NCBI GenBank assembly: GCA_044866315.1
Contig: JBIOTX010000044.1
Span: 10,596-74,595 of the forward strand
Reading direction: 5' to 3'
Origin: Thermoanaerobaculia bacterium
GTDB lineage: Bacteria > Acidobacteriota > Thermoanaerobaculia > Gp7-AA8
DNA length: 64,000 nt
Below, piece after piece: positions 9,676-60,438 of this stretch; positions within the stretch are counted from its first letter, which is position 1; each line of letters opens with the position of its first letter. A program made the translations under genes and the position numbers. The notes beneath the pieces are model-generated. The model had not been told where the DNA came from and did not search any database. It saw only the letters and a list, made by a program, of their open reading frames with translations.

Positions 9676-9682
9676 GTCCGCG

Positions 9683-10525
9683 CTACTCCGTTAGGTCTTC
9701 CTTTACGACGATCCGTTGAAAACGATCAGGCCGCCGCATAACAATACCGCGCATCTGGCGAAGCAGCTCAAGTCTGCTTCTCCGATGATTGATGATCACG
9801 TGGTCAAACAGTTCGATATTCTCGATATACCTACGCAAAATCACCTTTGCCTTTTCCGCGCGGCGAAGGATCTGTTCCTTGTCAATACCGCCTGTGGCAT
9901 CTGTGGCGGCGCGAGCAGTCTGCAACTGTTCAACGTCAATGGATTCAAGCGGTGAGAACACAAAGATAAAAACTGCTTGCTGCCCGAACATCGAACGCAA
10001 CTCTCGCAGGACTCTAATGTCGTTGACGATCGCAACGGGGGAGATGCCAGCGCATAGCAGCGAAATCAGCTCTGACGATGCCAACCCATAACGCACATTG
10101 TACTGTTCGTAAATCAGATCATAGCGTTGCGGAAAAGTGTTCGCACGTTTGGCTAGGCTCTCGATTTCTCGCAAAGCCTTACCGCGGCGACGCTCAGGGA
10201 GCTTCGCGACGAGCGCCTTCTTGATCTTTTGCAGCTCCTCGTGCGGCAGGGGTCCTCGCACCGTCAGCGTTCCAACACTGGAGTCGTAGGAATAGAACGC
10301 CGCATGCTTCTGGACAAAGTCGAGGAGCGCGGCTGTGCTTGGCAGCGGTGCGGCATTGGTATGCTCGACAGGTAAAATTTCGCTGCCGTCATCTCTTCGA
10401 CGACGCCGGGTCGTAATTTTCGGGACCACTTGGCACGTGAGGCCGCGAATACGTGGCAAAACGGCCAGCAGCGTGGATTTCCCCGATCCGGGAGCGCCCG
10501 TGAGGATGTATAGCCGACGCGCCAC
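9683..10525 (-). CDS. Guanylate-kinase-like P-loop kinase paralog with C-terminal extension (GK-like 2)
   Basis: LTGAPGSGKSTLL; KITTRRRRRDDGSEILPV; YNVRYGLAS; NIELFDHVIIN. A C-terminal tail of about 80 aa follows. A 7-nt gap separates it from GK-like 1. Confidence 0.6.
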   Translation of the reverse strand: MARRLYILTGAPGSGKSTLLAVLPRIRGLTCQVVPKITTRRRRRDDGSEILPVEHTNAAPLPSTAALLDFVQKHAAFYSYDSSVGTLTVRGPLPHEELQKIKKALVAKLPERRRGKALREIESLAKRANTFPQRYDLIYEQYNVRYGLASSELISLLCAGISPVAIVNDIRVLRELRSMFGQQAVFIFVFSPLESIDVEQLQTARAATDATGGIDKEQILRRAEKAKVILRRYIENIELFDHVIINHRRSRLELLRQMRGIVMRRPDRFQRIVVKEDLTE

Positions 10526-11752
10526 TCAGCCCCCAAACACGAATCGTACCGCCTGCGATACCTCCTCTAGGACTTCGCGAAGCGGTCCGGACATGACGTA
10601 GCGGAGATCGGGTGACGCGAGAAATCCGGATGTAGATGAGGCGCCTGGTTCAAGCGCTGGACTGCGATCAATTTCGGACTTTAGATCCGTGACGCGCACA
10701 AGGCGAAACTGAGAGTTCTTGAGGTTTTCGACGCGCAGATCCCTGTTTGCAATGAAGAGGTAGATATCGGCGATCACTCTGAGCCGCTTGACTCGATCTG
10801 TGAAATAGCGCGGCGTATCAAGCTGCAGCTGGTCACGAAGGCTGAAGTAGGCCCATTCGTTACCCTTAAAACCTCGAATCTCCTCAAGCGGCCGTCGGCC
10901 TCGTTTGTCGGGCCGCCAGTCACCCATGTAGATCACGTTCGCCTCACTCTCCGTGAAGTGAGCCATGCTCTCCTTATTCAGCTCGTCTTCAAATAATTCT
11001 TCGATCAGCTCACGCACCGCCGTTCGGGCGCTCGTCAGTTCTCTGCTCCAGTCAACGTGGCCGCCAACCGATTTATCCCACATCCCACGGTTGTCCTTCG
11101 CATTCTGGGCGCGTTGATGTATCAAGAGATTGCCGGCCCGGTCAAAAATGAAATCCCAAATAACGTACTGATGATAATCGGTGTCGTAGAAACAACCTCT
11201 CGGAAAGAGTCCCCGCGGCGCCCGTTCCTGATCGTAGAGCTCAATGACTTCAGCATCGCGTGCAGCGGTGAACCGAGCGCCATACCCGGCACGCAGATAC
11301 TCTTCATAGTGAACAACGGATCTGTGCCACGGATGTCGTTCGTCAATTTCTTCATAGAGATCAGCGTCAGCGAGCGTGTCCACGACGGGCACGCAGTAGA
11401 ATCGGCTGTCGAAGCGGGCGAGATTCAACGTGAGGGGCGCGTAGGCATTTCGAATGTCGATCCGCTCCTTGGCGGCCGCCGTAAAGTTATCGGCGAGCTC
11501 GTGAAAGAGGTCGCGACGGAAACGTAGCTCGCGAAAACTCAGCCGCTGTTCGGCGTCTGCTGTATCGAGACTTAGCGAACGACGAAAGAGTTCGTCGTCA
11601 GACTCGCAGAGAATCAACACCGAGGCTTTCGTGGCGCGTAGGTGCTGTGAGAAACGCTCAAGCGTTGACGCTGAGGCAACGTGAAGCGGCAGAACACCGA
11701 CCAGCGTCACCTGTTCCGTTGCGTTCGACAAGCAGTTCCACAGATCAAGCAT
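10526..11752 (-). CDS. Nudix-hydrolase-domain protein with N- and C-terminal extensions
   Basis: Nudix-box-like RGMWDKSVGGHVDWSRELTSARTAVRELIEELFEDE (GG..E...A.REl.EE pattern, with one-residue insertions relative to canonical GX5EX7REUXEEXGU). The probable start is MLDLWNCL, giving an 8-nt overlap with the kinase gene stop; the track ORF extends to 11833. Confidence 0.55.
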   Translation of the reverse strand: MLDLWNCLSNATEQVTLVGVLPLHVASASTLERFSQHLRATKASVLILCESDDELFRRSLSLDTADAEQRLSFRELRFRRDLFHELADNFTAAAKERIDIRNAYAPLTLNLARFDSRFYCVPVVDTLADADLYEEIDERHPWHRSVVHYEEYLRAGYGARFTAARDAEVIELYDQERAPRGLFPRGCFYDTDYHQYVIWDFIFDRAGNLLIHQRAQNAKDNRGMWDKSVGGHVDWSRELTSARTAVRELIEELFEDELNKESMAHFTESEANVIYMGDWRPDKRGRRPLEEIRGFKGNEWAYFSLRDQLQLDTPRYFTDRVKRLRVIADIYLFIANRDLRVENLKNSQFRLVRVTDLKSEIDRSPALEPGASSTSGFLASPDLRYVMSGPLREVLEEVSQAVRFVFGG

Positions 11753-13781
11753 TCGCGCTCGCCTCTGGCATTGTTTGAATGACGAAGTGAAGGACTTTGG
11801 CGACAGCATCCTCGAGTGTCGCAGGATGCTCATTCCAGGTCACGAGCGGATATGCCATCCGCATTCTGCTCTTGTTCGCCATGATGTACTGCACGTCCGC
11901 ACGCATTTCAGCAATGCGCCGCCGTGCATCGTCGACATGAAGGCCCCGGCTGAACATCCGCCGTTCCAGCTCATCGGGCCGAGCGAGTATCAGGATTGGA
12001 ATGGCGGCGACCCCGGCACGCTCGAAGGCTGAGGTCGCCGCGTCGAGGCGGGTGAACTCGGAAAAGATGCAGAAACGTACCGGATCGCCAGAAGGTCCCA
12101 CTGTGTCCGCTCCGAATGCGTACTTGTTCCCGTATTTTGTGTAACTCATGATGAGTCGCTCATCCCTCACCCACTTCTCGAACTCGACGGGATCTAATTG
12201 GCGTTGATACTCGAGCCGGCCCGGAATCGTGACTGTGGTCGGCTGCTCCATAGGTCGAAGGTCACGTGTACTGTATTTTGTGATGCAGTCGGCACGAATG
12301 CCCTTCGACAGCAGGCGGGGAATGACATCGCCGATAATCCGGTCCTTCCCGGCTGCAGACGGACCCGATACAACGTACAGCCTTGGGCGACTGTCAGTAG
12401 GATGGGGAATCCTAGTGTGACGTCGATCCACAACCGGCGATAGGATGGGATCATACGTGGCTTCGAGCCACTGCCGCCAGCGGGCGAATGCGACCGCGAC
12501 CATTTCCGCCGCCGACGCGGCGCCTTGGAGTAGATCATGATGGCCAGGTGTGGAACGAGCCAGCAACGTTGCGGCTTCGCACAGCGACATAGCATCGCTA
12601 TAGAGCCATTCGATCTGGGTGTCAGAGGGTGCGGGATCAACCAAGCTCAATGTAATGCGGAGATGCTCCAGCGCTTGCCCCATGTCTCTGGCGGCAGGAC
12701 CTACCACGCGCTGCACATTGTCTGCGACAACCACGAGCGCTCGAAGCGCGCTAATTGCGTCGGCGGCGCGGCGATCGGCACTGAACCGTTCAACGCTGCG
12801 CAGGAGCATCTCAAGTTCTTGTGCAGGGCCGGACGCGGGCTGTAAATCGTTGATGAAGGCTGGGGGCACAGCAATCGCGATGGGTTTCGTCCGAAGCAGG
12901 AGATCGAGTACTTCGGCAGCCCGCGTCGGCCGTTTGGTGGGGTCCTGTTGCAAACATTGGTGAAGCGTCTGCTGCCATTCGAGAGGCAGCGTCTTTAGTT
13001 CGTCGGGCAGTGGTGCTTTTCCAAGAATCGCATCGACGGTTTCCGCTTCGGTTGTTTTTCGGAATGGATGCACACCTGTCGTCGCAAGAAATATCAACAC
13101 TCCGAGCGCCCAAATATCTGATGCCATGGTTGCTTCTTCCCGGCGTACTTGCTCGGGTGCCATGTAGGCGAGCGTACCAAGCCATTGACCGGGCATGCTG
13201 ATAGGCGATTCACTTGGTTTTCTGGCGCCAGTGAATCGTGCTAAACCGAAATCCATGATTTTGGGAGCGGGAGGATCTCCTACGATCATCACGTTCTCAG
13301 GCTTAAAGTCGCGGTGCGTGATGCCCACTCTATGAATCTCATCAAGACCAGCGGCGATCGGCAGGAGAAGGCGCAATGCTCGATCTGCCGATAGTGGCCC
13401 CGTCTCATGTAGGTGGCGAGCTAACGTAACACCTTCAAGGAATTCCATAGTGTAGAACGTCTTATCGTCACTTAAGTGAAAAACTTTACAAACGTTTGGA
13501 TGAGTAACGTTTTTTGCTGCGCGCACCTCGCGCGCAAAACGCCGAATGAGATCCGGCCGGACAAGCAGATCGCGGCTTAAGGCCTTCAGCGCAATGCGCT
13601 CACTCTCCGCGTCGTCGTACGCTTCGTATACTTCGCCCATCCCACCCGCTCCTACGAAACTCACGATCTTGTACCGCTTCGCTAGGACTTGCCCAGGCGT
13701 AAATCGGTGGACGGGAATGGTATCCACGGCAGTCCCTGAGCGTCTTCTGGCACGAGCGCCGGGCCGTTCTTTCTTCGCCAT
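11745..13781 (-). CDS. Ser/Thr protein kinase fused to a C-terminal guanylate-kinase-like P-loop domain
   Basis: Hanks kinase motifs: VAIK-like ALKAL, HRDFKPENVMI, DFGLAR, APE (MAPEQ). A helical middle region follows. The C-terminal segment LYVVSGPSAAGKDRII...KYSTRDLRPMEQ...YTKYGNKYAF is a GMPK-like fold. Confidence 0.75.
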   Translation of the reverse strand: MAKKERPGARARRRSGTAVDTIPVHRFTPGQVLAKRYKIVSFVGAGGMGEVYEAYDDAESERIALKALSRDLLVRPDLIRRFAREVRAAKNVTHPNVCKVFHLSDDKTFYTMEFLEGVTLARHLHETGPLSADRALRLLLPIAAGLDEIHRVGITHRDFKPENVMIVGDPPAPKIMDFGLARFTGARKPSESPISMPGQWLGTLAYMAPEQVRREEATMASDIWALGVLIFLATTGVHPFRKTTEAETVDAILGKAPLPDELKTLPLEWQQTLHQCLQQDPTKRPTRAAEVLDLLLRTKPIAIAVPPAFINDLQPASGPAQELEMLLRSVERFSADRRAADAISALRALVVVADNVQRVVGPAARDMGQALEHLRITLSLVDPAPSDTQIEWLYSDAMSLCEAATLLARSTPGHHDLLQGAASAAEMVAVAFARWRQWLEATYDPILSPVVDRRHTRIPHPTDSRPRLYVVSGPSAAGKDRIIGDVIPRLLSKGIRADCITKYSTRDLRPMEQPTTVTIPGRLEYQRQLDPVEFEKWVRDERLIMSYTKYGNKYAFGADTVGPSGDPVRFCIFSEFTRLDAATSAFERAGVAAIPILILARPDELERRMFSRGLHVDDARRRIAEMRADVQYIMANKSRMRMAYPLVTWNEHPATLEDAVAKVLHFVIQTMPEASANA

Positions 13782-14003: not shown

Positions 14004-14039
14004 TCCGAGTTGACGTTATTGAGGGTTGTCGTCAACTCG
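14004..14039. promoter_or_regulatory. Palindromic operator-like site CCGAGTTGACG-N14-CGTCAACTCGG, about 240 bp upstream of the kinase operon start
   Basis: Perfect 11-bp inverted arms with a 14-nt spacer. A near-identical site is present at 24298..24333. Confidence 0.4.
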
Positions 14040-15021
14040 GCGATCGAGCCATCGCCAACCACCACACCGCGGTCGAGTGATCGCATTGCTGGCCAGCTCG
14101 TCATGACAGACTGAACGGATGCCGCAAACGCCGGGCCTTCCACAGGCTCGACAGAGGTGTTTCCGGTGTTAGTGTTGAGTTGTCGACCACACCGCAACTC
14201 CACCTTATGTGGCGAGACTTGGCTCCAGACCTTCTTCGACAGCGCTATATAATTGAAGATACAACGCAGGAATCGTCAAACCGGCGGGTATTAAGGCGTA
14301 CCTGTCGGGCCTTGCTAGTGTGGCAGAGATGGAAATACTCCCGGTCCGTTTGCTTATTCTGCACATGAATGGGCTACGGTGGGTGGGTGCACGGGAAAAC
14401 ATCGGGCAGCCACGTCTACAGCTACCCAACCACCCCCGCCGCTCTTCACTGCTGATGTTTATACATGCAAACGCTGCTCCGTTACTGACGTAGTTCAGTT
14501 CACGCACGAATATTTCGACGCAGTTGAAATTGTGTGGAGGACGATTCCTACCTGAATCAGCGGGGCGCTTCATGCGGGATGTGATTGATGAGTACGAGGA
14601 AGCGCGAAGAGTGGCGGCGGAGCTTCGCGGTGACTACGAGATCATGTTCAACGACGAGCACAAGCACTTCACGCATCGATTGGCCGTTCTAGTCTCGCTG
14701 CTGCTCGACCGACGGTCATAAGAGCCACGTCGAAGGCGCATCGGTCAATCATGATCGCCTCCAAACGCGATGATTGCGCTCGGTCGTAGGTCCCGGTGCA
14801 TGCACGATTGACCGTGGCTTGAGTCGGCTCTGCTCGACGCCACTGAAGTGGTGGCGATGAAATTGGCGGTGTGCCGTCGTGACGCGGGAACGGCGCCGGC
14901 GTGGGACCCTGCACGGGCAACTTGCGCAGATTAAAGCTGCACGACAGGCCGTATAACCTCGACTTCGATGTCGAAACAAAGCAGCCACTATTCAGTACTA
15001 ACCCCCGCCGGGCGGCGTTCG

Positions 15022-15873
15022 TCACCGTACGATCTCTTCAAGCGCCGTGGCGGCGTCGGTCTTACCGTCACGATACTTGACGATTACGGGTGTTGAGATG
15101 GCGAGGGCGTGATTCGCGGCGAAGGGACCGTTGATGGCCCTCGCTCCGGGTACGACGACAGCGCCTGAAGGAATCTCCAGGGCGGTCTCGGCTGTCCGTC
15201 GATAGAGCTGCGCACGCGGAACGTCATACACTGGCGTTGATCCTGTAATGATTACGCCAGCACCGATTATCGCTCGGGATCGAATAATCGTACCTTCGTA
15301 GATCCCGCAGTTTCCGCCGACGACGACGTCGTCTTCTATAATGACTGGTAGCTCGCCTATCGGCTCGAGAACTCCGCCAACCTGTGCAGCAGCGGACAGG
15401 TGAACACGCTTCCCGATCTGTGCGCACGATCCAACGAGCGCGTGAGAGTCAATCATGGTGTCATCGTCTACAAACGCGCCGATATTCACGAAAGACGGCG
15501 CCATTAGAACGACGCGGCGCCCGAGATGCGCTCCTCGTCGGACGGAAGAACCACCGGGAACGACTCGGATCCCTTCGTGTGCGTGGAACCGCCGCGTCGG
15601 CAAAGTATCCTTGTCTACGAAGGAAAGCCCCCCTGCCGTGTACTCGACGGCTGTTCCTAACCTTATCGCCGCGAGAATCCCCGTCTTAACCCAAGATTGG
15701 ACTCTCCATACTCCGTTAGGATCGCGGAACGCGGCGCGCACCCGACCCGCTTCCAGCTCCGCTAGCAAGAGACTGATCGTCTCTAGTGCTTCCGTACGAT
15801 GCGTCAGGTCTCCCAGCGCCGCGACGCGTTGTTGAATTGAAACCATGTTATTGTGCAGTCCTTCGCACCGCAC
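15022..15873 (-). CDS. dapD: 2,3,4,5-tetrahydropyridine-2,6-dicarboxylate N-succinyltransferase (hexapeptide-repeat acyltransferase)
   Basis: Left-handed beta-helix hexapeptide repeats (VVLMAPSFVNIGAFVDDDTMIDSHALVGSCAQIGKRVHLSAAAQVGG...). The length and N-terminal domain are typical of DapD, and it lies next to dapF and lysA. The start may be the internal MVSIQQ (15846). Confidence 0.7.
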   Translation of the reverse strand: MRCEGLHNNMVSIQQRVAALGDLTHRTEALETISLLLAELEAGRVRAAFRDPNGVWRVQSWVKTGILAAIRLGTAVEYTAGGLSFVDKDTLPTRRFHAHEGIRVVPGGSSVRRGAHLGRRVVLMAPSFVNIGAFVDDDTMIDSHALVGSCAQIGKRVHLSAAAQVGGVLEPIGELPVIIEDDVVVGGNCGIYEGTIIRSRAIIGAGVIITGSTPVYDVPRAQLYRRTAETALEIPSGAVVVPGARAINGPFAANHALAISTPVIVKYRDGKTDAATALEEIVR

Positions 15874-15955
15874 TCCCTCGTTTTGACGGTGGCCGCGCCG
15901 AAGGAGAGAGGTCCGCTTCGTCTTAGCAACGCATCACCGCGCCACGGCACGCGCG

Positions 15956-16795
15956 CTAGATGTCAATTTCACCCAGAAATACCTCAGCTGCGGGCCCAGT
16001 CATGATCACGTGATTATTTGTGGCCAGCCATGTAACGCTTAGGTCGCCCCCGGCTAGACGGACAGCGACCGTGCGGTCGGTGCGGTTGTTCAGCACGGCA
16101 GCAACAACTGCGGCACAGGCCCCAGTGCCACAAGCGGCCGTCTCCCCCGACCCGCGCTCCCAAACGCGCATGCGCAGCTCCGCACGACCAGAAACATGAA
16201 CGAACTCCGTGTTCACGCCCTCGGGAAAGAACGGGTGCGCCTCAAACATCGGTCCAATACGATCCAGCGGAAGGCTGTCTAAGTCATCCACGAAGACAAC
16301 GCAATGTGGGTTTCCAACCGAAACGCACGTGATCCGGTACGGTCGCCCGAGAACGTCGATCGCACCGTTGATCGCCAGTCCCTCGGCGGCCACAGGAATC
16401 TCGCTACCCGAAAGTATCGGCTCCTCCATGTCAACCGTTACGGTATCGACCCGCCCTTTCACCGCGTGGAGCACCAGATGCCTGATGCCGCTATCTGTCT
16501 CGACGCTAAGTCGGTCCTGACGCAAGCGCCGGCGCTCAAACATGTACTTACCCACGCACCGGATGCCGTTGCCACACATCCTCCCACGACTACCATCGGC
16601 GTTGTACATCACCATGCGGCAATCCGCCACCGCCGAGGGACAGATCAGGATCAGACCGTCGGAGCCAACACCCGTGCGTCGTGGGCTGACCCGTCGTGCA
16701 AGCGCGGCTGGATCGCTGATCGAATGCGCAAAGCAATCGACATACACATAGTCATTGCCGATTCCGTGCATTTTGGCGAAGGGCAGTCGTCCCAT
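15956..16795 (-). CDS. dapF: Diaminopimelate epimerase
   Basis: FAKMHGIGNDYVYVD, GNGIRC, ERGSGETAACGTGACAA are the catalytic Cys-containing DapF motifs. Confidence 0.85.
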   Translation of the reverse strand: MGRLPFAKMHGIGNDYVYVDCFAHSISDPAALARRVSPRRTGVGSDGLILICPSAVADCRMVMYNADGSRGRMCGNGIRCVGKYMFERRRLRQDRLSVETDSGIRHLVLHAVKGRVDTVTVDMEEPILSGSEIPVAAEGLAINGAIDVLGRPYRITCVSVGNPHCVVFVDDLDSLPLDRIGPMFEAHPFFPEGVNTEFVHVSGRAELRMRVWERGSGETAACGTGACAAVVAAVLNNRTDRTVAVRLAGGDLSVTWLATNNHVIMTGPAAEVFLGEIDI

Positions 16796-16801
16796 GGGTC
16801 A

Positions 16802-18139
16802 TCACCTCTCCGAAGGGCCGAAGTGAGGGACGCTCCGCGCGCGTCCGTCGTGGGAGGCGACAACATTTCGATCATCATCACCGGACGCCTCATTCTCACG
16901 CATCATGATGTCATCCAAGGTCCCGTGCCGTTCAATAAGCGACGACCGGCCGTCCGACCCAACCAACACAGACGCGGGCATGTTCATGGAGTTGTAGTCG
17001 CTCTTCATGGCGTGCGAGTACGCACCTACGCAGCCCATCACCATGAGGTCGCCCACAGCCACCTCAACAAACGTGCGCGGCGCCAGTACACCATCGCTAT
17101 CGACGGTGAAAACATCTCCTGACTCGCACAAGTATCCGGCGACGACGTAGGTCCGCGTCGCGTTCGACACCGGCGTGCCGCGCCGCACGAAGCGAATCGG
17201 ATGAAAGGAGCCATACATAGCGGGGCGAATATTGTGATTAAGTCCTGTATTCACGATGATAAAGTTGTAGAGAGGTGTGGACTTTACTGACTGCACATTC
17301 GCCAGAAGAGTGCCGGACTGTGCGACGACAAACCGTCCGGGTTCGATCTGCAGCGCGATTTCACGACCAGCAATCTTAGAAAAATCCCTCATGCTGGCCG
17401 ACAGCATCCGGCCCCAGTCGCCGACAGGCATTGGCTGTTCTGTTGCTTCGTTATAGACAACCGGCAGCCCTCCACCGAGGTTGATGAACTGCAGATCAGG
17501 AAATGCCGTCGCTATCTCAAGAGTTCGATCTTTGATGCGAAGCCACGGGGCAATGTCGTGGCTTCCTGAGCCGATATGCGTATGCACGCCGACGATTTTC
17601 ATGCCGACGGCCTCGGCTAAGGCCAAAGCCTCGTTGACCTGATCAAAATATATTCCGTGCTTGCTGCTGGGGCCACCAGTATTAGTCTTATTGCTTTCCC
17701 CATCGCCCTCTCCAGGGTTAACGCGGATGGAGCAGTAAGAGCGGCCGGGCACTGTGCCGAGCAAACGCAATTGGTCAAGTGACGCGCAATTGATGAAAAC
17801 ACCGCGATCAACCAGCTCTTTGTATACTTCGAATGTTGCGCCTTCGCCGGTATAGAACACCTCGGCCGGCGCGAAGCCAGCGCAGATCGCTCTGCGCACT
17901 TCGTTAACAGACGAAGCGTCGATCCACAGACCTTCGCTGCGAACGATCTTCAGAATGGCCTGCAGGGTTAACGCTTTGCAAGCGTAACGGATGACGGTCC
18001 GCGGGTAGGTTAGGGCGGATCGCAGCTCGCGACACCTGGCGCGAATGACAGCCTCCTCAAAGACATATAGTGGTGTCTTATAGGTGTCGGCGAGCTCAAG
18101 GAGGCGTTGTGTCGACAACTCAGTCGTGACGCTACTCAT
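16802..18139 (-). CDS. lysA: Diaminopimelate decarboxylase (PLP-dependent fold III)
   Basis: YACKALT (PLP lysine), GGGLPV, EPGRFVVA and YLCESGDVF motifs. It sits in an operon with dapF and dapD. Confidence 0.8.
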   Translation of the reverse strand: MSSVTTELSTQRLLELADTYKTPLYVFEEAVIRARCRELRSALTYPRTVIRYACKALTLQAILKIVRSEGLWIDASSVNEVRRAICAGFAPAEVFYTGEGATFEVYKELVDRGVFINCASLDQLRLLGTVPGRSYCSIRVNPGEGDGESNKTNTGGPSSKHGIYFDQVNEALALAEAVGMKIVGVHTHIGSGSHDIAPWLRIKDRTLEIATAFPDLQFINLGGGLPVVYNEATEQPMPVGDWGRMLSASMRDFSKIAGREIALQIEPGRFVVAQSGTLLANVQSVKSTPLYNFIIVNTGLNHNIRPAMYGSFHPIRFVRRGTPVSNATRTYVVAGYLCESGDVFTVDSDGVLAPRTFVEVAVGDLMVMGCVGAYSHAMKSDYNSMNMPASVLVGSDGRSSLIERHGTLDDIMMRENEASGDDDRNVVASHDGRARSVPHFGPSER

Positions 18140-18166
18140 AGATCACCTCCAATCGTAAGGCAAGGC

Positions 18167-18889
18167 TCAAAGTGTGGACGGTGTTGTGACGGTGGCCGCG
18201 GCCAGCCGAGCGACGGCGACCCGACGGCGTACGGTTCCAATTGTCGGCCGCTCGTAGTCAAACGCATGAGTTGCTTGAAGGAGAAATCCTGCGCTTTGTA
18301 ACTCCCGAGCGAGCGCGAGCGCGGAGAGCCGCAAGTGAGACATCAGATCGTGCACCTCATAATCAATAGGGCGATAGGGAGGATCATCGGATGTAATAAC
18401 AAGTGCGTCGGGCGACATGTTGGCGCCAAGGATGGAAAGTATCGTGTTCAAGCAGCCGATGAATGGTTGTTTGTACGTGGTCGCGAGATGTCCTAGTGAG
18501 CCGTCTAGATAGACGCGATCGAAGCGTCGCCCAAGCTTGGACAGATCAAAGGCGCTGAGCTTGATCGCGTTGAGCCCCAGCCGACGTTGGTGCTCGACGA
18601 ACGTATCGAAGACTTCGAGCGAAACGAGATTCGTGTAGCCGCGCGCGTGCAGGTCGGTTTCGACTGTGCCGGAACCTGATCCAATCGAGACAATGGCGCG
18701 ATCAAAAGGCAGGTGACCACCATCGGTAAGAATGTCTATGATGAACTCTCTATAGCCTGGCACGTACACGGACGGCACGATCCGCGCGCCAACAGGAAGC
18801 GCTTCGTTCCAACGTTCAGCGATCGAGGATTTATCCTGGCCTGAGGTGTAAAAGGACTCTATCGTCTTGTCAATTGTTGATGTGCTCAT
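18167..18889 (-). CDS. Class I SAM-dependent methyltransferase (first gene of the lysA-dapF-dapD operon)
   Basis: Motif I VSIGSGSGTVE in a Rossmann-like layout; 28 nt upstream of lysA. Confidence 0.55.
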   Translation of the reverse strand: MSTSTIDKTIESFYTSGQDKSSIAERWNEALPVGARIVPSVYVPGYREFIIDILTDGGHLPFDRAIVSIGSGSGTVETDLHARGYTNLVSLEVFDTFVEHQRRLGLNAIKLSAFDLSKLGRRFDRVYLDGSLGHLATTYKQPFIGCLNTILSILGANMSPDALVITSDDPPYRPIDYEVHDLMSHLRLSALALARELQSAGFLLQATHAFDYERPTIGTVRRRVAVARLAAATVTTPSTL

Positions 18890-19465
18890 GGGTCAGCCCC
18901 TTATGTCGACGCTGGTGTTGTTGAGCTGAAGTGAATCGCCAACCTCCCGCACTTCCGCGTGACTCGTCTGATAGCTACTCAGGAACGAAGTCTCCGAGGT
19001 GGGTTACGCGCCTGGTGAAGTCTTGTGCGGCTTGGTCGCCACGCTACGGACGGGGGCGACCGCCGCGTTGAACGACGCGAATCCCCCCAGAAGCGTTCTT
19101 GCGTCGTCTTGAAGGCAGAGTGTCGGGACCGACCCATCTCCGCGCAGCGTTCTACTCTCGTCGCCACGAGCACTTCGGCTCGGAGGTGGTGTTGGCGCGC
19201 CCCTCCTAAGCGACATCTGGTGATAGAGTCCCACCCATACCGCGTGAAGGAACACGGCGAATGCGATACTGGTTTCCTGCATTGCGCATGCAGAATCGGC
19301 TTCATCGGTCACCTCTAAAATGTAAGTAGGCGTGCGATTTGGCAGCGGTAACATGCTCGTATGCGGTCTGGTCGTCGCTTTGTCGCCCCACGTGGGAAGG
19401 GTCGCGGAAGAGCGAGGATGGAAACCGTGAGGTCCTAGTTCGGTTGAGCGAGGAGTGAGGGAGGA

Positions 19466-22462
19466 GTGACTACAACGCGAGAAGAAGCGAGGAGGGACGA
19501 GATCCTCGGGCTCCCCGATGACGCGCTCGATTTCCGCGAGTGGTGGCAGGAGCTCACGGGCCGAAAGCCGGGAAGATCACTCATTGTCCGGCTGCGCTAC
19601 GCGGTGGCAGCGGGGACGCTCGGTGGGATAACTGAGAGTTGCGAGACAGGCTGGAAGGATGTTGCCAACAACTACGGCGGACGCCGGGAGGCCAACATCC
19701 TTGAATGCGCGCTTCTGTGCGCGCGTGTGGCTGCCATCGATCCTGGCGATAGCTTCGCGGTGGATGCGCTGTGCGATAGGTTGTCGTCATTCGGGCCATC
19801 CCGTCAACGCCACGGCATCGACCGGAGGCAGTGGCCGGCGATGGTTGCAGAATTGATCCACCAGAGCCCGGAGGGCTCGCTTTTTCGCCCTGAGGATTCC
19901 TCGTTCTCTCCTGCCATCGCATGGGATCTGGTGAACCGTTTCTGGGCAGATCGCGAAGATCGTGCTCCCTGGGCCCGCCGCCCTCTGCCCGGCTTTAAGA
20001 CGCTAGTCGCATTGCTCGTGGATCGCAGACTGGAGAAGATAAGCGACGGCAAGAACGCCTACTCGGAACGCGGAGCCACGGCAGAGTTGATGCTGGAGTT
20101 ACTTCCCCAAGGCCGAGGCCAAATTTTCCCCGATCCAGGAAAACTCCTGTTCGTGAAGCAGGATCGTGGCTTCCGTGAAGCGATAGTCGCCGCTCAAGAG
20201 AGCGTTCGAGAGCTGCTTGGCGGCGATATCCAAGGGTACGACGTGCGCTGGGGCCTGAAGAGCCACGGCGACGGGCAATTCACAGAGTTGGCTAAGGACT
20301 CGGCCGGAGGGGCGTTCGCCCTGGGATTGACCGTGCTCTGGCCACAAAGCAGGGATGCGAAACTCTTCAAGCGAGTTAGGAGACTGGATGTAAGCAGAGT
20401 CGCAGTTACTGCGAAGCTGAAACAGGAGGAAGGCACTTGGCGATTCGCCCACGTCGATGCGATCTCGGCGAAGATGTGGGCGGCGGTACAGCGTCCCGAG
20501 CAAATAACCACGGTCTACGTGGCCCCTGGCCAGCCGCGCGACGATTTTCCGACTCTACGTGTGGCGGAAGCGTCGACACTGTTCGAGCTCGTAGACAAGC
20601 TACACAAAGAGCCAAAGGACAAGTCGACACCCCGCTGGTCATCACAGGCCGTCCGTCGATTGATCTCAGTAATTCTCCTGACGTCCATCGCAACCGGAGT
20701 ATGGGTTTATCGCTTGGGACAGCTACGCCAAGCTCAGCGCGACGTCGATCATTGGCGCGACAAGACGCTTGTTTCGGTGCTTCCCAGCCGATACTCGCCT
20801 TCTGAGATCACCAAGGCCTACATAGACGATAGCGACCCGCTGGATCTAGCCCAAGTACTCATTCACCGTCGCGACTTCATTAAGGCAGAGCGCGCGCTCG
20901 CAAAGGCGGCTCAACAAGGTCAAGCCGATCGTTCGCGGTTCTACACGCTTGCGGGTGACATCCACTACTTTCAAAATCAGTACGACAAGGCCGCGCCCTA
21001 TTACGAGCAAGCGGTGGTGCGATCTGGTCCGGATGATGTTGAGACACAATCCGACCTTGCGCTTGCCCTGCTGCAGTCTCAAGGACCCGACGCAACCGAA
21101 AGGATCGAGCGTGCACTACGCATCCAACGCCACGTAATCGCCGTACTGGAGTCAGACACCTGGGCTTGGCCATCGACCGCTCATAGACAAAAATGGGCCT
21201 GCGCTCACCTAAACTTGGCGAGACTATTGGTCGACCGACCACGGTACAGAGCGCGTAGCATCGAGGGCGCTCTCCGATCTCTAGAAAAGGCACTAACAGT
21301 TTTTACGAAGGAAACCGATCCCAGGGCCTGGGCATATATCACCAGCATGCAAGGAGTGGCGTGGCAGAATAAACCGGACGGTAATAGAACGGCCAACGTC
21401 AAGCGCTCGCTCAAGTATCTCGAGGACGCGTTGGCGGTGTACAAGCACCAGCAAATGCGTCGCAAGGTCTACTTCAATAGTTACATGCTAGGGGTTGCGT
21501 GGGGCCAATTGCGGGAAGGCGATCGGACGTACAACTTCGAGAAAGCACTCGGCTTCTTTCGCGACGCTGAGGACGCCCTCGCGGGAGACCCAGCCAATCA
21601 ATATCCTGCTGACAAGGCAAAGATTATGCGAGCTCGGGGCCTCGTTCTGGTCTATCGGCGTACGGGCGATCGGGCAACAAATCTCGAGCAGGCTATCGGC
21701 AACTACAGCATGGCTTTGAACGTATTCGAACACCTCGGTCAGGGGATCGACGCGGCTAAGACCAGGACCGACCTTGCCCGTGCGATCCTGCGACGGAATC
21801 GGGGGAATTCGGAAGACGTCGAGACGGCAATCGAATACCTGCAGCAAGCTGCCGATTTCCTAAAGAAAGGCAAATTTGAAGTCGAGTGGTCGCAGACCCA
21901 GGACGACCTAGGTACCGCGTACCGACAGCGGCTCGCTGGTGATCATTTTGCCAACCTTAAGAAGTCCAAGACTTACTATGAAAACGCGTTATCCGTTCGA
22001 GTACAAATGGGACGCGCTGGACGGCTCGCGGATACGTTGAACGGGCTTGGACGTACGATGCTAGCCATGGCAGATCGCGACGGAAGCGTTGCCACTGAGA
22101 AGGCTATCTCACTGTTCACGGACGCCCTTAGCCTGTTACCGAAAGACGTGAAACACCCCTACAACGGCCACCCTAGATCGATGTTGCTGCAGGAACTTAC
22201 TGCTAGCGAACTGTCGCCGGCGGAGGCTCCCGAATACTTGGCGGAAACGTCAGTCAATCTAGGAGACGCGCTTTCTAGCCTGACTACCGGTGATCTGAAA
22301 CACAATCGTAGGATTGCCGAGGAGTATTACCGGATAGCGGTGCGGTTCTATGGCGGAATTCCATATTACTCGCCCGAGTATTCAGCCCTCCGCCGCAAGC
22401 TAGGGTTAGTGTCGGAGAGGAAGTCTTTCCCTAGGCGGCGCATGTCGGCACGGAGTGATTGA
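19466..22462 (+). CDS. Large TPR-repeat protein with an N-terminal ~400-aa uncharacterised domain and one TM helix
   Basis: TM helix LISVILLTSIATGVWVY at about residue 400. The C-terminal 550 aa are repetitive TPR-like helices (YYEQAV, ALGFFRDA, AIEYLQQA...). The N-terminal domain contains SAGGAFALGLTVLW, which has no obvious assignment. Confidence 0.6.
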   Translation: MTTTREEARRDEILGLPDDALDFREWWQELTGRKPGRSLIVRLRYAVAAGTLGGITESCETGWKDVANNYGGRREANILECALLCARVAAIDPGDSFAVDALCDRLSSFGPSRQRHGIDRRQWPAMVAELIHQSPEGSLFRPEDSSFSPAIAWDLVNRFWADREDRAPWARRPLPGFKTLVALLVDRRLEKISDGKNAYSERGATAELMLELLPQGRGQIFPDPGKLLFVKQDRGFREAIVAAQESVRELLGGDIQGYDVRWGLKSHGDGQFTELAKDSAGGAFALGLTVLWPQSRDAKLFKRVRRLDVSRVAVTAKLKQEEGTWRFAHVDAISAKMWAAVQRPEQITTVYVAPGQPRDDFPTLRVAEASTLFELVDKLHKEPKDKSTPRWSSQAVRRLISVILLTSIATGVWVYRLGQLRQAQRDVDHWRDKTLVSVLPSRYSPSEITKAYIDDSDPLDLAQVLIHRRDFIKAERALAKAAQQGQADRSRFYTLAGDIHYFQNQYDKAAPYYEQAVVRSGPDDVETQSDLALALLQSQGPDATERIERALRIQRHVIAVLESDTWAWPSTAHRQKWACAHLNLARLLVDRPRYRARSIEGALRSLEKALTVFTKETDPRAWAYITSMQGVAWQNKPDGNRTANVKRSLKYLEDALAVYKHQQMRRKVYFNSYMLGVAWGQLREGDRTYNFEKALGFFRDAEDALAGDPANQYPADKAKIMRARGLVLVYRRTGDRATNLEQAIGNYSMALNVFEHLGQGIDAAKTRTDLARAILRRNRGNSEDVETAIEYLQQAADFLKKGKFEVEWSQTQDDLGTAYRQRLAGDHFANLKKSKTYYENALSVRVQMGRAGRLADTLNGLGRTMLAMADRDGSVATEKAISLFTDALSLLPKDVKHPYNGHPRSMLLQELTASELSPAEAPEYLAETSVNLGDALSSLTTGDLKHNRRIAEEYYRIAVRFYGGIPYYSPEYSALRRKLGLVSERKSFPRRRMSARSD

Positions 22463-22554
22463 TCGGTTCGTCGGATGTCGCATCTTACCTTCCGCACCCC
22501 TTCACCTTGGCCTTCGATGACGGCGCTTCATCAGCGCAGATGCATCCGATAGCT

Positions 22555-23271
22555 TCACTCGGAGGAATACTCCTCGAACGCGTCAATCTCGAGCTGGATG
22601 ACATCCGCCGCGCTAACGGTTCCGATCTGAGTCTTGGAGAAGACAACGGTGCCGACGATCCTTCCCGCGCACCTCGCGAATGCAACATCTTCGACAGCCT
22701 CACCAAAGAGCAGGCGAATGGCAGGCATTTCAACTAAGTCTTCAACCTCGCTATCAAAGGTCACAACAACATCGTTTCCCTCGTCTATCATCTTCCAACG
22801 CAGCCGTTGGTCCGGTGTGCTTGCTTCGAAGGAAGCACCTGTGTCGAAGGCCTGCGCTTCGAACACGGGCCTGAATTGCTCGGAAACCGCCAAGGGTAGA
22901 CGGATCGTCCGGCGAACTGCACTTCTTCCGAATGCCGTAGAACGCATGCGTTCGGAAAGCTGCTCCATGAGTGGGGCGCCCAGCTGCCGGAACTGATCTG
23001 TCAGCCAAGGCAGCAGGCGACGCTTCCTTTCGTACTCACCCAAACCATCAACGATACCGCCTAGGAACTTCGCGCACGTGTCGCAAGACTCGCAATGTCG
23101 CTTGACGGCACGCCCGCGGTCCAGATCGAGCTCGCCCTTGGCATACTGAATCGCCTCGTATGGGTCGACACAATCGTCACGCATGTCGTCGTGAAGCGCG
23201 AGGAGCTCATCCAGGAAGCGCTCCGCAGCCGTAATGGCTGACGTTTCTCCTGGGTTGTTTTTGGTGTTCAT
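22555..23271 (-). CDS. Anti-sigma factor with zf-HC2-type zinc-binding N-terminus
   Basis: H-x3-C-x2-C pattern (KRHCESCDTC); 4-nt overlap with the upstream ECF sigma gene. Confidence 0.55.
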   Translation of the reverse strand: MNTKNNPGETSAITAAERFLDELLALHDDMRDDCVDPYEAIQYAKGELDLDRGRAVKRHCESCDTCAKFLGGIVDGLGEYERKRRLLPWLTDQFRQLGAPLMEQLSERMRSTAFGRSAVRRTIRLPLAVSEQFRPVFEAQAFDTGASFEASTPDQRLRWKMIDEGNDVVVTFDSEVEDLVEMPAIRLLFGEAVEDVAFARCAGRIVGTVVFSKTQIGTVSAADVIQLEIDAFEEYSSE

Positions 23272-24098
23272 AGTGCTCCCATCGTTTCGAGAATCCCCTT
23301 AAGTTCGTTTCTCGCATTGTGTACGAGTTGCTTAGCGGCCATCTTGCCTATGACGAGTTGCTGACCGATTTGTTCGTCGGTCAACCCCTCCTTGTAACGC
23401 ATGCGAAGTGCATGGAATCTCCTCGAAGGAAGGGTGCTCTCCGCTATACACCAAACGAACTTGGCGAGAGACCTCTTTTCCATTTCGTCTTCCGGGCTTG
23501 GTCTGTCATCAACAATGTTGCTAAGAAGATCCTCGGCATCCTGTGTACCAGTTGCCGCCAACGGTTCCGCTCCGCCGGATCGCCGCCAATGCTTCACGCA
23601 AGCCCGCTTGAAGCAAAAGAGAACATAACCTAGGAGTGACCTGCAGAGTGGATCATAGCTTGCTAGAACCGCGTCCAACGGGCCAAGCCCGATGAACTCC
23701 TGGACGATATCTTCGAGCAAGTCAGTATGGATCGAACGACCACCAGATTGCTGCCGCAGAACACCCCAGGCGACTAGCCTCATCTCTTTCCACTGATTCT
23801 CTGCTAGCCAAACGAGAACCCTGCGACGCTCGTCGTCATCGGCAACCCTGGCCGGGCAAGAACGTGTGCGCCCAGGTACCAGGGTCGCGCAAAACTCATC
23901 AAGGCTCTTAAGCATCGTGTCGACGCACTCCAAGGATGCTGTTAGGGGCGCGGCAGGTTGTTCGCCGGCGGCCATGCGAAACGCACTCACTGCTTCGAAT
24001 GCAATTGGCTTTTCGCCGACACGCCACAGTGCGGTACGGAGCAATAGCCAGTCGGTGATGGTCGGATCTGAAACCATAGTTTGTCTCAGCGTGGTCAA
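23268..24098 (-). CDS. ECF-type sigma-70 family factor with N-terminal extension
   Basis: C-terminal region-4 HTH (RFHALRMRYKEGLTDEQIGQQLVIGKMAAKQLVHNARNELKGIL) and a region-2-like segment; coupled to the anti-sigma gene. Confidence 0.65.
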   Translation of the reverse strand: MTTLRQTMVSDPTITDWLLLRTALWRVGEKPIAFEAVSAFRMAAGEQPAAPLTASLECVDTMLKSLDEFCATLVPGRTRSCPARVADDDERRRVLVWLAENQWKEMRLVAWGVLRQQSGGRSIHTDLLEDIVQEFIGLGPLDAVLASYDPLCRSLLGYVLFCFKRACVKHWRRSGGAEPLAATGTQDAEDLLSNIVDDRPSPEDEMEKRSLAKFVWCIAESTLPSRRFHALRMRYKEGLTDEQIGQQLVIGKMAAKQLVHNARNELKGILETMGAL

Positions 24099-24297
24099 CT
24101 TGCCTCAATCCAGGAACTCACAGCTCCGAAGGCGGATGAGCGTGATATCTCATTCGAAAGCAGACCATTCTCTGCCTGCGCCCGCTGTACTGATATAGGA
24201 CAGTCCGACCGCGCAGGTAACACCCCACGCCATGATTCCGCGGCAGCCGTCTGGGCAGCTCTCATTTCGTTTGTCCGAGGGAGCGGGACCAATTCAA

Positions 24298-24333
24298 GCC
24301 AGTTGACGTTTTTGGGTAGAACCGTCAACTCGC
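24298..24333. promoter_or_regulatory. Second copy of the palindrome GCCAGTTGACG-N14-CGTCAACTCGC; about 215 bp upstream of the ECF sigma gene and overlapping the stop of the integrase remnant
   Basis: Same GAGTTGACG/CGTCAACTC core and 14-nt spacer as the site at 14004..14039. Confidence 0.4.
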
Positions 24334-24975
24334 GTTATTTGCAGCAATCTCGTCGGACAGAAGCGCTTCCTCATACTTCGCCTCCCGGCGTTTGTTGGTG
24401 ACAGCGGCGTAGACCATCGTCGAGGCGATGTCGCGATGGCCGAGCCAGTCCTGAACATCCGCCGCGTCCCACCCGGCGTTCATGAGATGTACGGCGATCG
24501 AATGGCGGAAGACGTGGGGGTGCCTGCGGTCCTGCGGCAGCCCGGCGGCTTCCGCGTACCCGCGGAAGAGCTGGTAGATTGTGGAGGCAGACATCGGTCG
24601 ACCGGCGCTCTGGCGTGTGGCGAACAGGTACGGCCGTGACCTTGGCCCTAGCTGCTCCAGGTACTCCCAGAGTAGTCGCCGCGTGGTGGGATGAATCGGG
24701 TACTCGCCCGAAATACCTCCCTTGATCCGCGTGATCCAGATGCGCTCTCCGACGTGCTCTCGCCGGATAAGCGCCACTTCCTGGCGGCGGAGCCCGTAGC
24801 GGTACATGACGTCGAAAAGCAGCCGATTCCGTCCGTCCATACGTGGGATGGCGGCGAAAAGCCGTTCGACTTCCCCTTTGGTGAGGTAGGCAAGGTGGTG
24901 CGCGGCTTGGCCCCCGACGACGTGCATTCCGTGTCTCTGTCCTACGTGGAACGTGATCTTGACGCTTTTACCCAT
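24325..24975 (-). pseudogene. Tyrosine recombinase (phage-integrase family) catalytic domain only; N-terminal core-binding domain missing
   Basis: Catalytic segment LTKGEVERLFAAIP...R..., HVFRHSIAVHLMNAGWD...LGHRDIASTMVYAAV (HxxR ... Y). At 216 aa it lacks the SAM-like N-domain, and an in-frame stop lies upstream. Confidence 0.6.
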
Positions 24976-25060
24976 TTTCGTGAACTGGCCGAGCTTAGAT
25001 CTGAGTGTTCCTTAACTATACCCCCTCACTAAACATGGTAAAGATTTCAGGCCTAAAGTA

Positions 25061-26113
25061 ATGCCAGGTATGGCGTACCCGGTGAAAGGTGTGTGTGCCG
25101 TAACAAGAAGGAACTTCCTGCGATCCGTCATTGCCGCGGGCGTATGCGCAGCCCTGCCGAAAAGACGAGGATTGGCACGCCACAGCCCGCATGTAGGCCA
25201 CGTGTTGCACATGTTCCGCATTCGGGGCACAGAGGCTACTTCCTTTGTGACCTTCGAACGGGGCCTCGCCCGTGGGGTAATTCATACTCCCGATGGGTCT
25301 ATTCTCGTAGAAGATCGCGGCGAAGGAATCTCGCGCTTTGTGGTGATCCCCCCGGCCTTTGTGTGCTGTGTTCACCCTAAGACCGAAACGCAAGCGGCCA
25401 AGCCCGGCAAGCGCCGTTCGGTGCGCCATCCGCCGCCGCCAAACCCTCTTGCAATCGAGGTTCGGATCATGGTCGCGGTTTCGGCAGAGTCCTTCGCGGC
25501 TGCCGGCGGCGCCGATCAGGTGCGGGTGGAAGCGCAGGCTCTGGTGGACCAGGCTTCGGTAATGGCGCGAGACAGTGGTTATCCGGATACGACTTTTGTC
25601 CTGACCGGCACGCCGCTCGTGAGCCTCACGCCGACCGGCGATCCCTGGGCGGACTTGAGGAGCCTGTCCCGCGACCCGATGATCGCCGCGGAGCGCAAAG
25701 TGGAGCAGGCGGATATTGTTGCTTTCATGACCGAAAGCGACAACGGCGTCGCGGCAAGTCCCCGGAGTCTTGCTGGCTTCGGATGCGACAACGGCTACTT
25801 CGTTTTCCCCCGGAAATACGCGCTCGTGAGCTACGTCTTTGCTCATGAGCTCGGGCACAACCTCGGGATGCAGCACAACGTGGAGGATGCCGGCCAGACC
25901 CAAATCCCGTACTCGTTCGGTTTCCACAACGACGAACTGGAGCGGAACTGCGTGATGTCCGTTTTCCGGAATTGGCGCCGCGTGCCGCTCTGGTCCACAA
26001 CCGCCGCCATGTGGCAGGGCAAGCCCATGGGCAAAACCGGTGAAGCGGACGCCGCACGGCTTCTCAAGGAAGGCGCCAAACTTGTTTCGCAGTATCGCTA
26101 TCAGCTGCCCTGA
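25061..26113 (+). CDS. TAT-secreted zinc metalloprotease, reprolysin/M12B-like (HEXXHXXGXXH)
   Basis: Twin-arginine signal TRRNFLRSVIAAGVCAAL; zinc site FAHELGHNLGMQHN. An alternative start is MAYPVKG at 25070. Confidence 0.7.
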   Translation: MPGMAYPVKGVCAVTRRNFLRSVIAAGVCAALPKRRGLARHSPHVGHVLHMFRIRGTEATSFVTFERGLARGVIHTPDGSILVEDRGEGISRFVVIPPAFVCCVHPKTETQAAKPGKRRSVRHPPPPNPLAIEVRIMVAVSAESFAAAGGADQVRVEAQALVDQASVMARDSGYPDTTFVLTGTPLVSLTPTGDPWADLRSLSRDPMIAAERKVEQADIVAFMTESDNGVAASPRSLAGFGCDNGYFVFPRKYALVSYVFAHELGHNLGMQHNVEDAGQTQIPYSFGFHNDELERNCVMSVFRNWRRVPLWSTTAAMWQGKPMGKTGEADAARLLKEGAKLVSQYRYQLP

Positions 26114-33644: not shown

Positions 33645-33890
33645 ATGGCTGAGTCATTCGACACTGACGTGCGTAAGACCATTGCCCGCTGCTTTCCGCA
33701 ACTGACGCAGGAGGAGCTTTCCACCGCGGTTGAGACGTTTCTCGGCTACATCGACATCGTCAACGACGTAGACGACGCGCTACAAGCCGATCCGAAGCGG
33801 TTCGCCGCATTGACAGCGAACGTCCACCGGGCTACGGTCGAAGCGGGCCAGGTCGAGCCCACAAACCAACAGTTTCCTCTCCATGCATAA
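33645..33890 (+). CDS. Small ORF (81 aa) overlapping the serine recombinase start; possible accessory or directionality factor
   Basis: MAESFDTDVRKTIARCFPQLTQEELSTAVETFLGYIDIV... has a non-repetitive composition and an 8-nt overlap with the recombinase gene. There is no motif support. Confidence 0.25.
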   Translation: MAESFDTDVRKTIARCFPQLTQEELSTAVETFLGYIDIVNDVDDALQADPKRFAALTANVHRATVEAGQVEPTNQQFPLHA

Positions 33891-60396: not shown

Positions 60397-60438
60397 GCGC
60401 AGCACCGGCGATGGTCCTCGGATCTGACGCTCAGATCC
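60397..60438. repeat. 42-bp direct repeat copy 1 with internal perfect hairpin (GGATCTGA-cgc-TCAGATCC)
   Basis: gcgcagcaccggcgatggtcctcggatctgacgctcagatcc; 38/42 identical to copy 2. Confidence 0.6.

Follow-up and report, generated by a model that had tools for sequence, protein, structure and literature searches.

A contig from a Thermoanaerobaculia bacterium (Acidobacteriota; GenBank assembly GCA_044866315.1, contig JBIOTX010000044.1) carries two copies of a long palindrome, and the question raised by this locus is whether they are a shared operator or the sites of a recombinase. The stretch analysed, referred to as the window, comprises 64,000 nucleotides (contig positions 10,596 to 74,595, forward strand). 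One palindrome (copy 1) lies upstream of a Ser/Thr kinase operon, and the other (copy 2) lies upstream of a sigma/anti-sigma operon and over the end of a gene for a short tyrosine recombinase, here called int. A sequence-only reading of the locus had proposed either a dimeric regulator co-controlling both operons or a recombinase core site. We conclude that the palindromes are likely core recombination sites of the 216-aa recombinase, the gene of which lies between two inverted sites and would itself be invertible, and that they are not a shared operator. We put the probability of this at roughly 80%.

Anatomy of the palindromes

A pattern search of the window for AGTTGACG-N14-CGTCAACT returned two exact + strand matches, at 14008-14037 and 24301-24330. 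As none of 100 dinucleotide shuffles of the window gave a match, the two-copy palindrome is considered real. The arms of copy 1 (CCGAGTTGACG/CGTCAACTCGG) are perfect over 11 bp (14005-14040), as had been described, although at coordinates one base off; those of copy 2 are perfect over only 8 bp, with 10/11 matching over 24298-24333. Pairwise alignment of their flanks found nothing in common outside a 32-nt repeat. Both copies lie on the same strand upstream of a minus-strand open reading frame (ORF), at a distance that we measure as about 200–225 bp (previously given as 215–240 bp): copy 1 upstream of the Ser/Thr kinase ORF at 11745-13781 (start 13781) and copy 2 upstream of a sigma70_r4 protein ORF at 23268-24098 (start 24098). 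These had been thought to be the only copies in the window. A search allowing three mismatches yielded a third, degenerate copy with 3 arm mismatches, which overlaps the int start codon. Hereafter, copy 2 is site B, the degenerate copy is site A and copy 1 is site C (Table 1).

The 14-nt spacer between the arms, previously described as T-rich, has the length given but is structured, with a 6-nt centre between a 4-nt A/T tract and a second 4-nt tract; the T-rich portion common to copies 1 and 2 is the outer tract plus the initial bases of the centre. Across 31 distinct cassettes (int with its two sites), a site spans 30–36 bp and has a 6-bp centre, preceded by an arm ((CG)AGTTGACG and a 4-nt A/T tract) and followed by the inverted arm. 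In this layout, which resembles lox or dif, each site is better described as a 6-bp asymmetric centre flanked by 12-bp arms. In the sense of int, site A is AGTTCACG AAAA TGGGTA AAAG CGTCAAGA and site B is AGTTGACG GTTC TACCCA AAAA CGTCAACT, and the two sites are inverted relative to each other because their centres are reverse complements. The int start codon (CAT on the + strand, 24973-24975) straddles the border between the centre and the outer tract of site A, such that the A of ATG is the final outer-tract base and TG are the first two centre bases. The int stop codon (TGA, 24325-24327, - strand) falls within the inner arm of site B, in agreement with the overlap noticed earlier. Site C has the same orientation as site B and lies 10,293 bp away from it.

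Table 1 Features of the window that bear on the palindromes and their genomic context.
Feature	Coordinates	Strand	Description
Site C (copy 1)	14005-14040, core 14008-14037		AGTTGACG TTAT TGAGGG TTGT CGTCAACT; centre TGAGGG, 14020-14025
Site B (copy 2)	24298-24333, core 24301-24330		+ strand AGTTGACG TTTT TGGGTA GAAC CGTCAACT; centre 24313-24318
Site A	24957-24986		+ strand TCTTGACG CTTT TACCCA TTTT CGTGAACT; centre 24969-24974; inverted relative to B
Predicted invertible segment	24313-24974		662 bp centre to centre
int	24325-24975	-	tyrosine recombinase, 216 aa; catalytic domain plus 29 N-terminal residues
Sigma-70-like promoter candidate	25015-25042	-	TTTACC-16-TATAGT, just outside site A and reading into int; consensus scan only
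Metalloprotease gene	25061-26113	+	reprolysin-like (Pfam Reprolysin_5), TAT-type signal TRRNFLRS; divergent from int on the A side
Coupling protein	29953-31215		TrwB/HerA-like
Primase	32563-33537
Large serine recombinase	33883-35403
Replic_Relax	6459-7259		leftward island gene
N6/N4 methylase	7347-7871		fragment; leftward island gene
Kinase-Nudix-GK operon	9112-13781		leftward island genes beside copy 1: Ser/Thr kinase, Nudix, P-loop protein, guanylate-kinase-like (GK) protein
lysA-dapF-dapD-like genes	15022-18139		inside the island

The recombinase is short and complete

The product of int had been regarded as an integrase remnant. Considering that its 216-aa length is conserved among relatives and its catalytic residues are intact, it is a complete protein. 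It matches Pfam PF00589 over residues 30-195 with 108.2 bits (gathering cut-off 27.1), and in an alignment with XerD (1a0p) the R, K, H-x-x-R, H and Y are all conserved (int-XerD pairs GLRRQE-GLRVSE, the IKGG-K region, HVFRHS-HVLRHA, LGHRD-LGHSD and MVYAAV-QIYTHV). The PF00589 domain, the R-K-H-R-H/W pentad and the tyrosine nucleophile place it in the tyrosine recombinase superfamily. The gene caller chose an internal start at 24927, giving 200 aa.

The best NCBIfam E-values are to XerA, XerC and XerD, through the C-terminal halves of the profiles only, and the scores are below the equivalog cut-offs (XerA 103.7 against 220, XerC 92.6 against 335, XerD 88 against 330). The Xer-type N-terminal core-binding domain (~100 aa) is absent, with just 29 residues ahead of the catalytic domain. 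The FimB-type 'tyrosine-type DNA invertase' profile NF007370 is covered end to end (positions 11-184 of 200), with scores again under the cut-offs of the Fim families (NF007370 63.4 against 221; NF007371 51.6 against 222), and the same is true for integron integrases (56.8 against 265 and 40.5 against 435). By curated score cut-offs, int is outside the Xer, Fim and integron-integrase families.

The sites move with int

We scanned GTDB (one genome per species) with the 16 specified bases of the motif. Among the matches listed (at least 118 stretches) most are single and unrelated, and the source genome is not among them. Of those listed, five to six have the same flank (GCAAATAACGCG) and spacer (nnCTACCCAAAAA) as copy 2. 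These copy-2-like loci are from Acidobacteriota (L018, L098), a metagenome-assembled genome (MAG) of Gemmatimonadaceae (L007) and a Polyangiaceae MAG (L003), and tblastn identified the complete 216-aa protein in them at 66–88% identity (frameshifted in L003). In addition, a protein search returned at least 275 int homologues of 198–230 aa from soil metagenomes and MAGs, and a metagenome scan returned 38 contigs with an int locus. The palindrome lies over the int stop codon in every related locus (Acidobacteriota, Gemmatimonadaceae and Polyangiaceae MAGs and metagenome contigs), site B directly following the int stop in about 40 of them, and a related site lies over the int start in all loci that contain the 5' end of int. 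The genes past site B vary by locus: a sigma factor is present here only, and elsewhere there are PfkB-TIR, an ABC transporter, a pseudouridine synthase, an ion channel and sometimes convergent genes. Since the site tracks the int stop whatever gene is downstream, its position upstream of the sigma operon is incidental.

These comparisons bear on the proposal that the palindromes are operators of a dimeric transcription factor for the kinase-Nudix-GK and sigma/anti-sigma operons. The proposal accounts for the similar distance of the two copies from a minus-strand ORF, and the arms contain TTGACG, which is similar to a -35 box. However, the site is linked to the int stop codon rather than to a gene downstream, a third copy lies over the int start, the half-sites are 22 bp apart centre to centre, and the downstream genes are unrelated among the int loci. 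Conservation upstream of orthologous operons was not found among the loci compared, which were int loci, orthologous kinase and sigma promoters not being among those recovered. An operator also does not predict the covariation of the 6-bp centre with a partner 0.66 kb away (described below). We therefore regard a shared operator as highly improbable.

Outside these loci, tblastn found no int relatives among PLSDB plasmids, and INPHARED phages gave merely ~30% identical XerD-like matches and no close relative. A literature search found no description of this int family. Two other groups of GTDB matches were seen. First, loci from Pyrinomonadaceae and other Acidobacteriota (L014, L020, L021, L071, L087) have the same 8-bp arms around a GC-rich self-palindromic spacer, e.g., AGTTGACG CTACCGCGCGGCGG CGTCAACT, and may represent a different family of palindromic elements. 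Second, Actinomycetota loci (L004, L022, L043, L114 and, in reverse, L047, L082, L120) have AGTTGACG CTGCTSGGNCAGAA CGTCAACT in common, conserved across families, which is probably a piece of conserved coding sequence and not a recombination site.

The centres of sites A and B covary

We compared the centres of sites A and B in the 31 distinct cassettes, in which they are 653–669 bp apart. The A centre is the reverse complement of the B centre in 30/31, the sole exception being L003, with its frameshifted int. This holds across 14 centre variants (TGGGTA, TGGGGA, TGGGCA, TGAGAA, TGAGCA, TGAGGA, TGATTA, TGAAGA, CGAGGG, TGGCGA, TGCGGG, TGCGAG, TGCGTA and TGAACA). When the pairing was shuffled 100,000 times, the mean number of matches was 5.8 and the maximum 15, with no shuffle reaching 30. 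Per position, identity between A and the reverse complement of B is 0.97–1.00 at the six centre positions, 0.48–0.74 in the inner tract and 0.06–0.13 in the outer tract (always AAAA against TTTT). Because identity is confined to the 6-bp centre and the neighbouring tracts do not covary, a requirement for homology in a crossover region is supported. By the same comparison, a DNA or RNA stem between the ends of int is disfavoured, as a stem would need the tracts to pair too.

Folded structures are disfavoured by other evidence as well. If the palindromes acted as single-strand hairpins, whether intrinsic terminators, REP-like elements or folded attC-type sites, the fold of copy 1 (an 11-bp stem, -12.3 kcal/mol, z = -5.0) would be expected; yet the fold is weak for copy 2 (-7.3 kcal/mol, z = -2.4) and absent for site A, the loop is 14 nt with no T-run after it, and a duplex between sites A and B would contain an invariant 4x4 A·A internal mismatch, identity being maintained in the 6-bp centre alone. 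This leaves the hairpin explanation with next to no likelihood. The individual candidates were rejected as follows. An intrinsic terminator has a short GC-rich stem, a 3–8-nt loop and a T-run; a terminator was called at neither site. Dispersed REP- or MITE-like palindromes, which the sequence-only reading had named as the finding that would speak against its proposal, do not match three copies in 78 kb of the source contig and, among the GTDB matches listed, a single one per locus. The window between 13 and 26 kb has no Rfam match. For attC, the GTTGACG/CGTCAAC arms misfit GTTRRRY/RYYYAAC (direct reading), in addition to the absent fold of site A. A folded single-strand site of the attC or CTX kind and an RNA stem joining the 5' and 3' ends were rejected because only the centre is identical and the tracts are constantly mismatched.

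Two convergent cassettes were found 21.5 kb apart on a single 45-kb contig, with centres TGGGTA and TGAGGA. Two differing centres on one contig fit the idea that centres serve as orthogonal addresses. Between the two cassettes of this contig (L169/L170; Logan SRR28401763_688) are defence-like genes (ORC/CDC6-like, GHKL ATPase, Mrr/helicase, DNA methylase, NACHT), and a ubiquitin-like Bil-type cluster and HigB lie outside them.

A naturally inverted cassette

In the proposed mechanism, the recombinase would bind the arms of sites A and B, pair the two sites and exchange strands inside the 6-bp centre, inverting a 0.66-kb segment that is essentially the int ORF itself. The outer arms would remain with the flanking DNA. 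After inversion, the int start codon would change from ATG to TTG, and int would be uncoupled from the candidate promoter on the A side and would become co-directional with the neighbouring gene for a secreted metalloprotease. In the window, the native junctions are GGCCAGTTCACGAAAA-TGGGTA-AAAGCGTCAAGA and AGTTGACGGTTC-TACCCA-AAAACGTCAACTGGC, and those predicted for the flipped state are GCCAGTTGACGTTTT-TGGGTA-AAAGCGTCAAGA and AGTTGACGGTTC-TACCCA-TTTTCGTGAACTGGCC.

A flipped cassette was identified in contig L166, found among N-terminally extended gene calls (P0053 reads ..QLTSLGKS, compared to ..FTKMGKS in the native upstream peptide). Its 5' end (CCAGTTGACGTCTT-TGGGTA-AAAGCATCAAGA) has a B-type outer arm, AGTTGACGTCTT, followed by an A-type inner arm, with TTG in place of ATG, and its 3' end (AGCTGATGCGAA-TACCCA-TTTTCGTGTACT) has a B-type inner arm followed by the reverse complement of an A-type outer arm. 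These junctions are those predicted for inversion with crossover at the centres. In alignment with native L098, int is +/+ and the adjacent reprolysin-like metalloprotease gene (74% nucleotide and 77% protein identity) is +/-; in L166, this family member is downstream of and co-directional with int. Relative to native L171 (80% nucleotide identity), the homology begins exactly with the first base of one centre and ends with the final base of the other (L166 436-1100). Misassembly of L166 is unlikely because the repeat is much shorter than the assembler's k-mer. The closest recombinase to that of L166 is 86% identical and is known here as a protein only; a close native-orientation counterpart was not found among retrievable DNA, where an 82%-identical recombinase has unrelated flanks. 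Through its hybrid junctions, L166 provides comparative evidence for inversion of a segment bounded by inverted repeats, a feature of the FimB/FimE type. Recombinase core sites, the second suggestion of the sequence-only reading, are supported, with the modification that the partner of copy 2 is site A and not copy 1.

The flipped locus also helps to evaluate whether A-int-B (0.69 kb) is a minimal transposon-like element, with the sites as terminal inverted repeats and copy 1 as a target or footprint. Nucleotide homology between the window and L165 is limited to 24300-24992, which is the cassette, with a sharp break at the outer arms, and L150 and L158 have a 98.9% identical 2.2-kb flank that includes the outer arm, yet differ in their centres and int 3' ends. 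However, the flipped locus keeps the outer arms with its flanks and only the centre-to-centre segment is turned, which is inversion in place. No target duplications, empty sites or multi-copy identical cassettes were seen, non-coding flanks would be unalignable anyway at 66–88% protein identity, and L158 is possibly an assembly chimera. A transposon-like element is accordingly quite unlikely. In the L150/L158 pair, L150 285-2508 and L158 1-2225 are 98.9% identical including the outer arm of site B, with centres TCCGCA and TTCTCA; the explanation is either natural replacement of a cassette, broken at the centre, or a chimera from assembly at a contig end.

Copy 1, other solo sites and evidence against inversion

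Copy 1 is a poor partner for copy 2 because its 6-bp centre differs, and it may belong to a different set of addresses. It belongs to the same site family and probably represents a relic of another cassette or its docking site. No int remnant was found by tblastn (E <= 10) next to copy 1 or other solo sites. Solo sites with the same orientation were observed downstream of site B in several loci, at 10.3 kb in the window, 7.6 kb in L121, 8.0 kb in L130/L155 and 173 bp in L145, the centre being TCCTCA in L121, L130/L155 and L145. Its reverse complement, TGAGGA, is the centre of other cassettes (L162, L170). In addition, L108 has a solo B-type site without int. In L130, the centre of a weak site at 4706-4735 (ACATGACG CAAC TGAGGA TCTC CGTCGACT) matches that of the solo site at L130 18659 exactly in reverse complement. 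Inverted relative to each other and separated by 14 kb, these two sites enclose the coupling protein, Replic_Relax, the int cassette and cargo. This bracketed stretch could be a second, nested invertible segment.

The recurrence of such solo sites lends some weight to a rival explanation, that copies 1 and 2 are att-type direct-repeat ends of a 10.3-kb segment that can be excised or inserted, with Int capturing it at site B or excising it in an integron-like or cis-mobilizable manner. The segment contains sigma/anti-sigma genes, a TPR protein and lysA-dapF-dapD. Sites B and C are directly oriented, the same-orientation solo site past B recurs (window, L121, L130/L155, L145), and close relatives differ in the cargo after B but keep the same backbone upstream of int. 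Nevertheless, the B and C centres always differ (TACCCA against CCCTCA or TCCTCA; in L145, TTCTCA against TCCTCA), which counts against this explanation because conservative insertion would leave identical centres, and sites of the family that demonstrably recombine show strict centre matching. Furthermore, most loci with 10 kb of downstream sequence are without a solo site, and no empty or excised form was found in the loci compared. We consider an excisable segment unlikely.

Returning to inversion by int between sites A and B, several observations weigh against it. Flipped loci account for 1 of about 41 distinct loci, and the Logan assembly of SRR30692730, which has an identical locus, covers both sites in the reference orientation. 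As judged from sequence comparison, inversion is demonstrated over evolutionary time and not as active phase variation in this organism. The switch between ATG and TTG may be irrelevant, as the internal Met17 of int is a possible start in both orientations. Copy 1 is a solo site with perfect arms and a centre (TGAGGG) that differs from the B centre at 3/6 positions, and 78 kb of contig contains no partner whose centre matches: a search for TGAGGG/CCCTCA over contig positions 3.1–76.5 kb returned none at up to 6 arm mismatches in the window or at up to 8 in the 9.3 kb to its left. Finally, the solo sites past B in four loci suggest a role that inversion of int does not capture.

The sites lie in a composite mobile island

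Window positions 1-36000, together with the extension to the left, form a composite mobile island that holds both palindromes. The divergent ORF on the A side of int belongs, in most related loci, to a single, rapidly evolving family of metalloproteases. To the right of int, past the metalloprotease, are DUF6876, RadC, the coupling protein, the primase and the large serine recombinase. The same backbone is found beside an int of 85% identity in another contig, in which the genes past site B are entirely different. L165 holds a copy of this second locus, with the same int encoded, and at nucleotide level has only the cassette (24300-24992) in common with the window. Beyond the left edge of the window lies a gene for a 390-aa tyrosine integrase (L167 15119-16291), next to a sigma54 regulator, HisKA and LpxC (housekeeping genes). 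We also considered copy 2 as the attL of an element to the right but did not retain this as the main explanation: a large serine recombinase is encoded by that element itself, a separate integrase of 554 aa is present in other loci, and no second matching site is present to the right.

Several side observations concern the cargo and the wider surroundings. The kinase of the operon beside copy 1 matches PADLOC PD-T4-6 kinase models (E = 5e-69), possibly via its generic kinase domain only. Cargo past site B elsewhere includes PfkB-TIR and guanylate kinase (L123) and Maf, dTMP kinase, NDK and RelA/SpoT (L121). These kinase, Nudix and nucleotide-enzyme genes hint at nucleotide-based defence. A 546–554-aa tyrosine integrase with an N-terminal SAM-like domain is found 3–5 kb from int in L123 (4367-6031), L007 (540-2180) and L125 (13448-15088); in L125, both its side and its relative orientation are reversed with respect to L123 and L007, which suggests larger rearrangements around the cassette. 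The window also contains two 42-nt direct repeats (60397-60438 and 60545-60586) that are 93% identical and lie 148 bp apart, with a short palindrome (GGATCTGA.GCTCAGATCC) at the end of each.

Implications

Bases previously read as a shared promoter element plus a decayed integrase are re-annotated here as an intact site-specific recombination module in a mobile island. As a caution for annotation, integrases of ~200 aa that consist of the catalytic domain alone should not be written off as pseudogenes. If the mechanism is true, these modules offer very small tyrosine recombinases with 30–36-bp sites and a natural panel of non-cross-reacting centres, a property that has been engineered into lox and FRT variants for genome engineering. 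They would also be a clean natural case of a recombinase ORF delimited by its own sites, raising questions of self-limiting or phase-variable expression, and would suggest how cargo is organised beside such cassettes in Acidobacteriota-type mobile elements.

More speculatively, soil bacteria may contain a widespread family of minimal (~216-aa) Cre/lox-like modules with at least 14 naturally orthogonal centres, forming a self-toggling switch that also acts on the linked metalloprotease and/or downstream cargo. Solo sites such as copy 1 would then be docking points for cargo exchange in mobile and defence islands, integron- or pdif-like but with their own recombinase. We offer this broader view tentatively and think it doubtful as a whole.

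Comparison with known systems

Among tyrosine recombinases, FimB/FimE and fimS of E. coli are alike in their ~200-aa size, the absence of a full core-binding domain and inversion between short inverted sites. However, the int sequence is nearer to Xer catalytic domains and scores far below the Fim family cut-off. The Fim sites are 9-bp inverted repeats around a 314-bp promoter element with the recombinase genes outside, whereas here 30–36-bp lox-like sites delimit the recombinase ORF itself. For Xer systems (XerCD/dif, XerS/difSL, XerH/difH, XerA), which have the best catalytic-domain similarity to int, the sites likewise consist of arms and a 6-bp centre, and the XerS gene adjoins difSL as int adjoins its sites; Acinetobacter pdif modules are likewise bounded by inverted sites in mobile DNA. 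In contrast to Xer proteins, int is without the core-binding domain and below all Xer cut-offs, its arms are unrelated to dif, and each cassette has two inverted sites, which would not resolve dimers.

Cre/loxP and FLP/FRT also have two inverted arms of ~12–13 bp around an asymmetric spacer of 6–8 bp, with spacers that must match between partners, and lox variants with engineered spacers act orthogonally to one another. On the yeast 2-micron plasmid, the FLP gene lies between inverted FRT sites on a mobile replicon, an arrangement similar to that of int. Compared to Cre (343 aa) and FLP (423 aa), int has 216 aa and is without an N-terminal DNA-binding domain, its sites overlap its own start and stop codons, and its spacer diversity is natural (14 variants). 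In Hin/hix and Gin/gix, the Hin gene is likewise inside the segment that it inverts, but these are serine recombinases that need an enhancer and Fis, and a promoter or alternative gene ends are included in their invertible segment as well. Overall, for a tyrosine-recombinase inversion module, we rate as distinctive the sites over the gene's own start and stop codons, the natural panel of centres and the conserved linkage to a metalloprotease in mobile islands.

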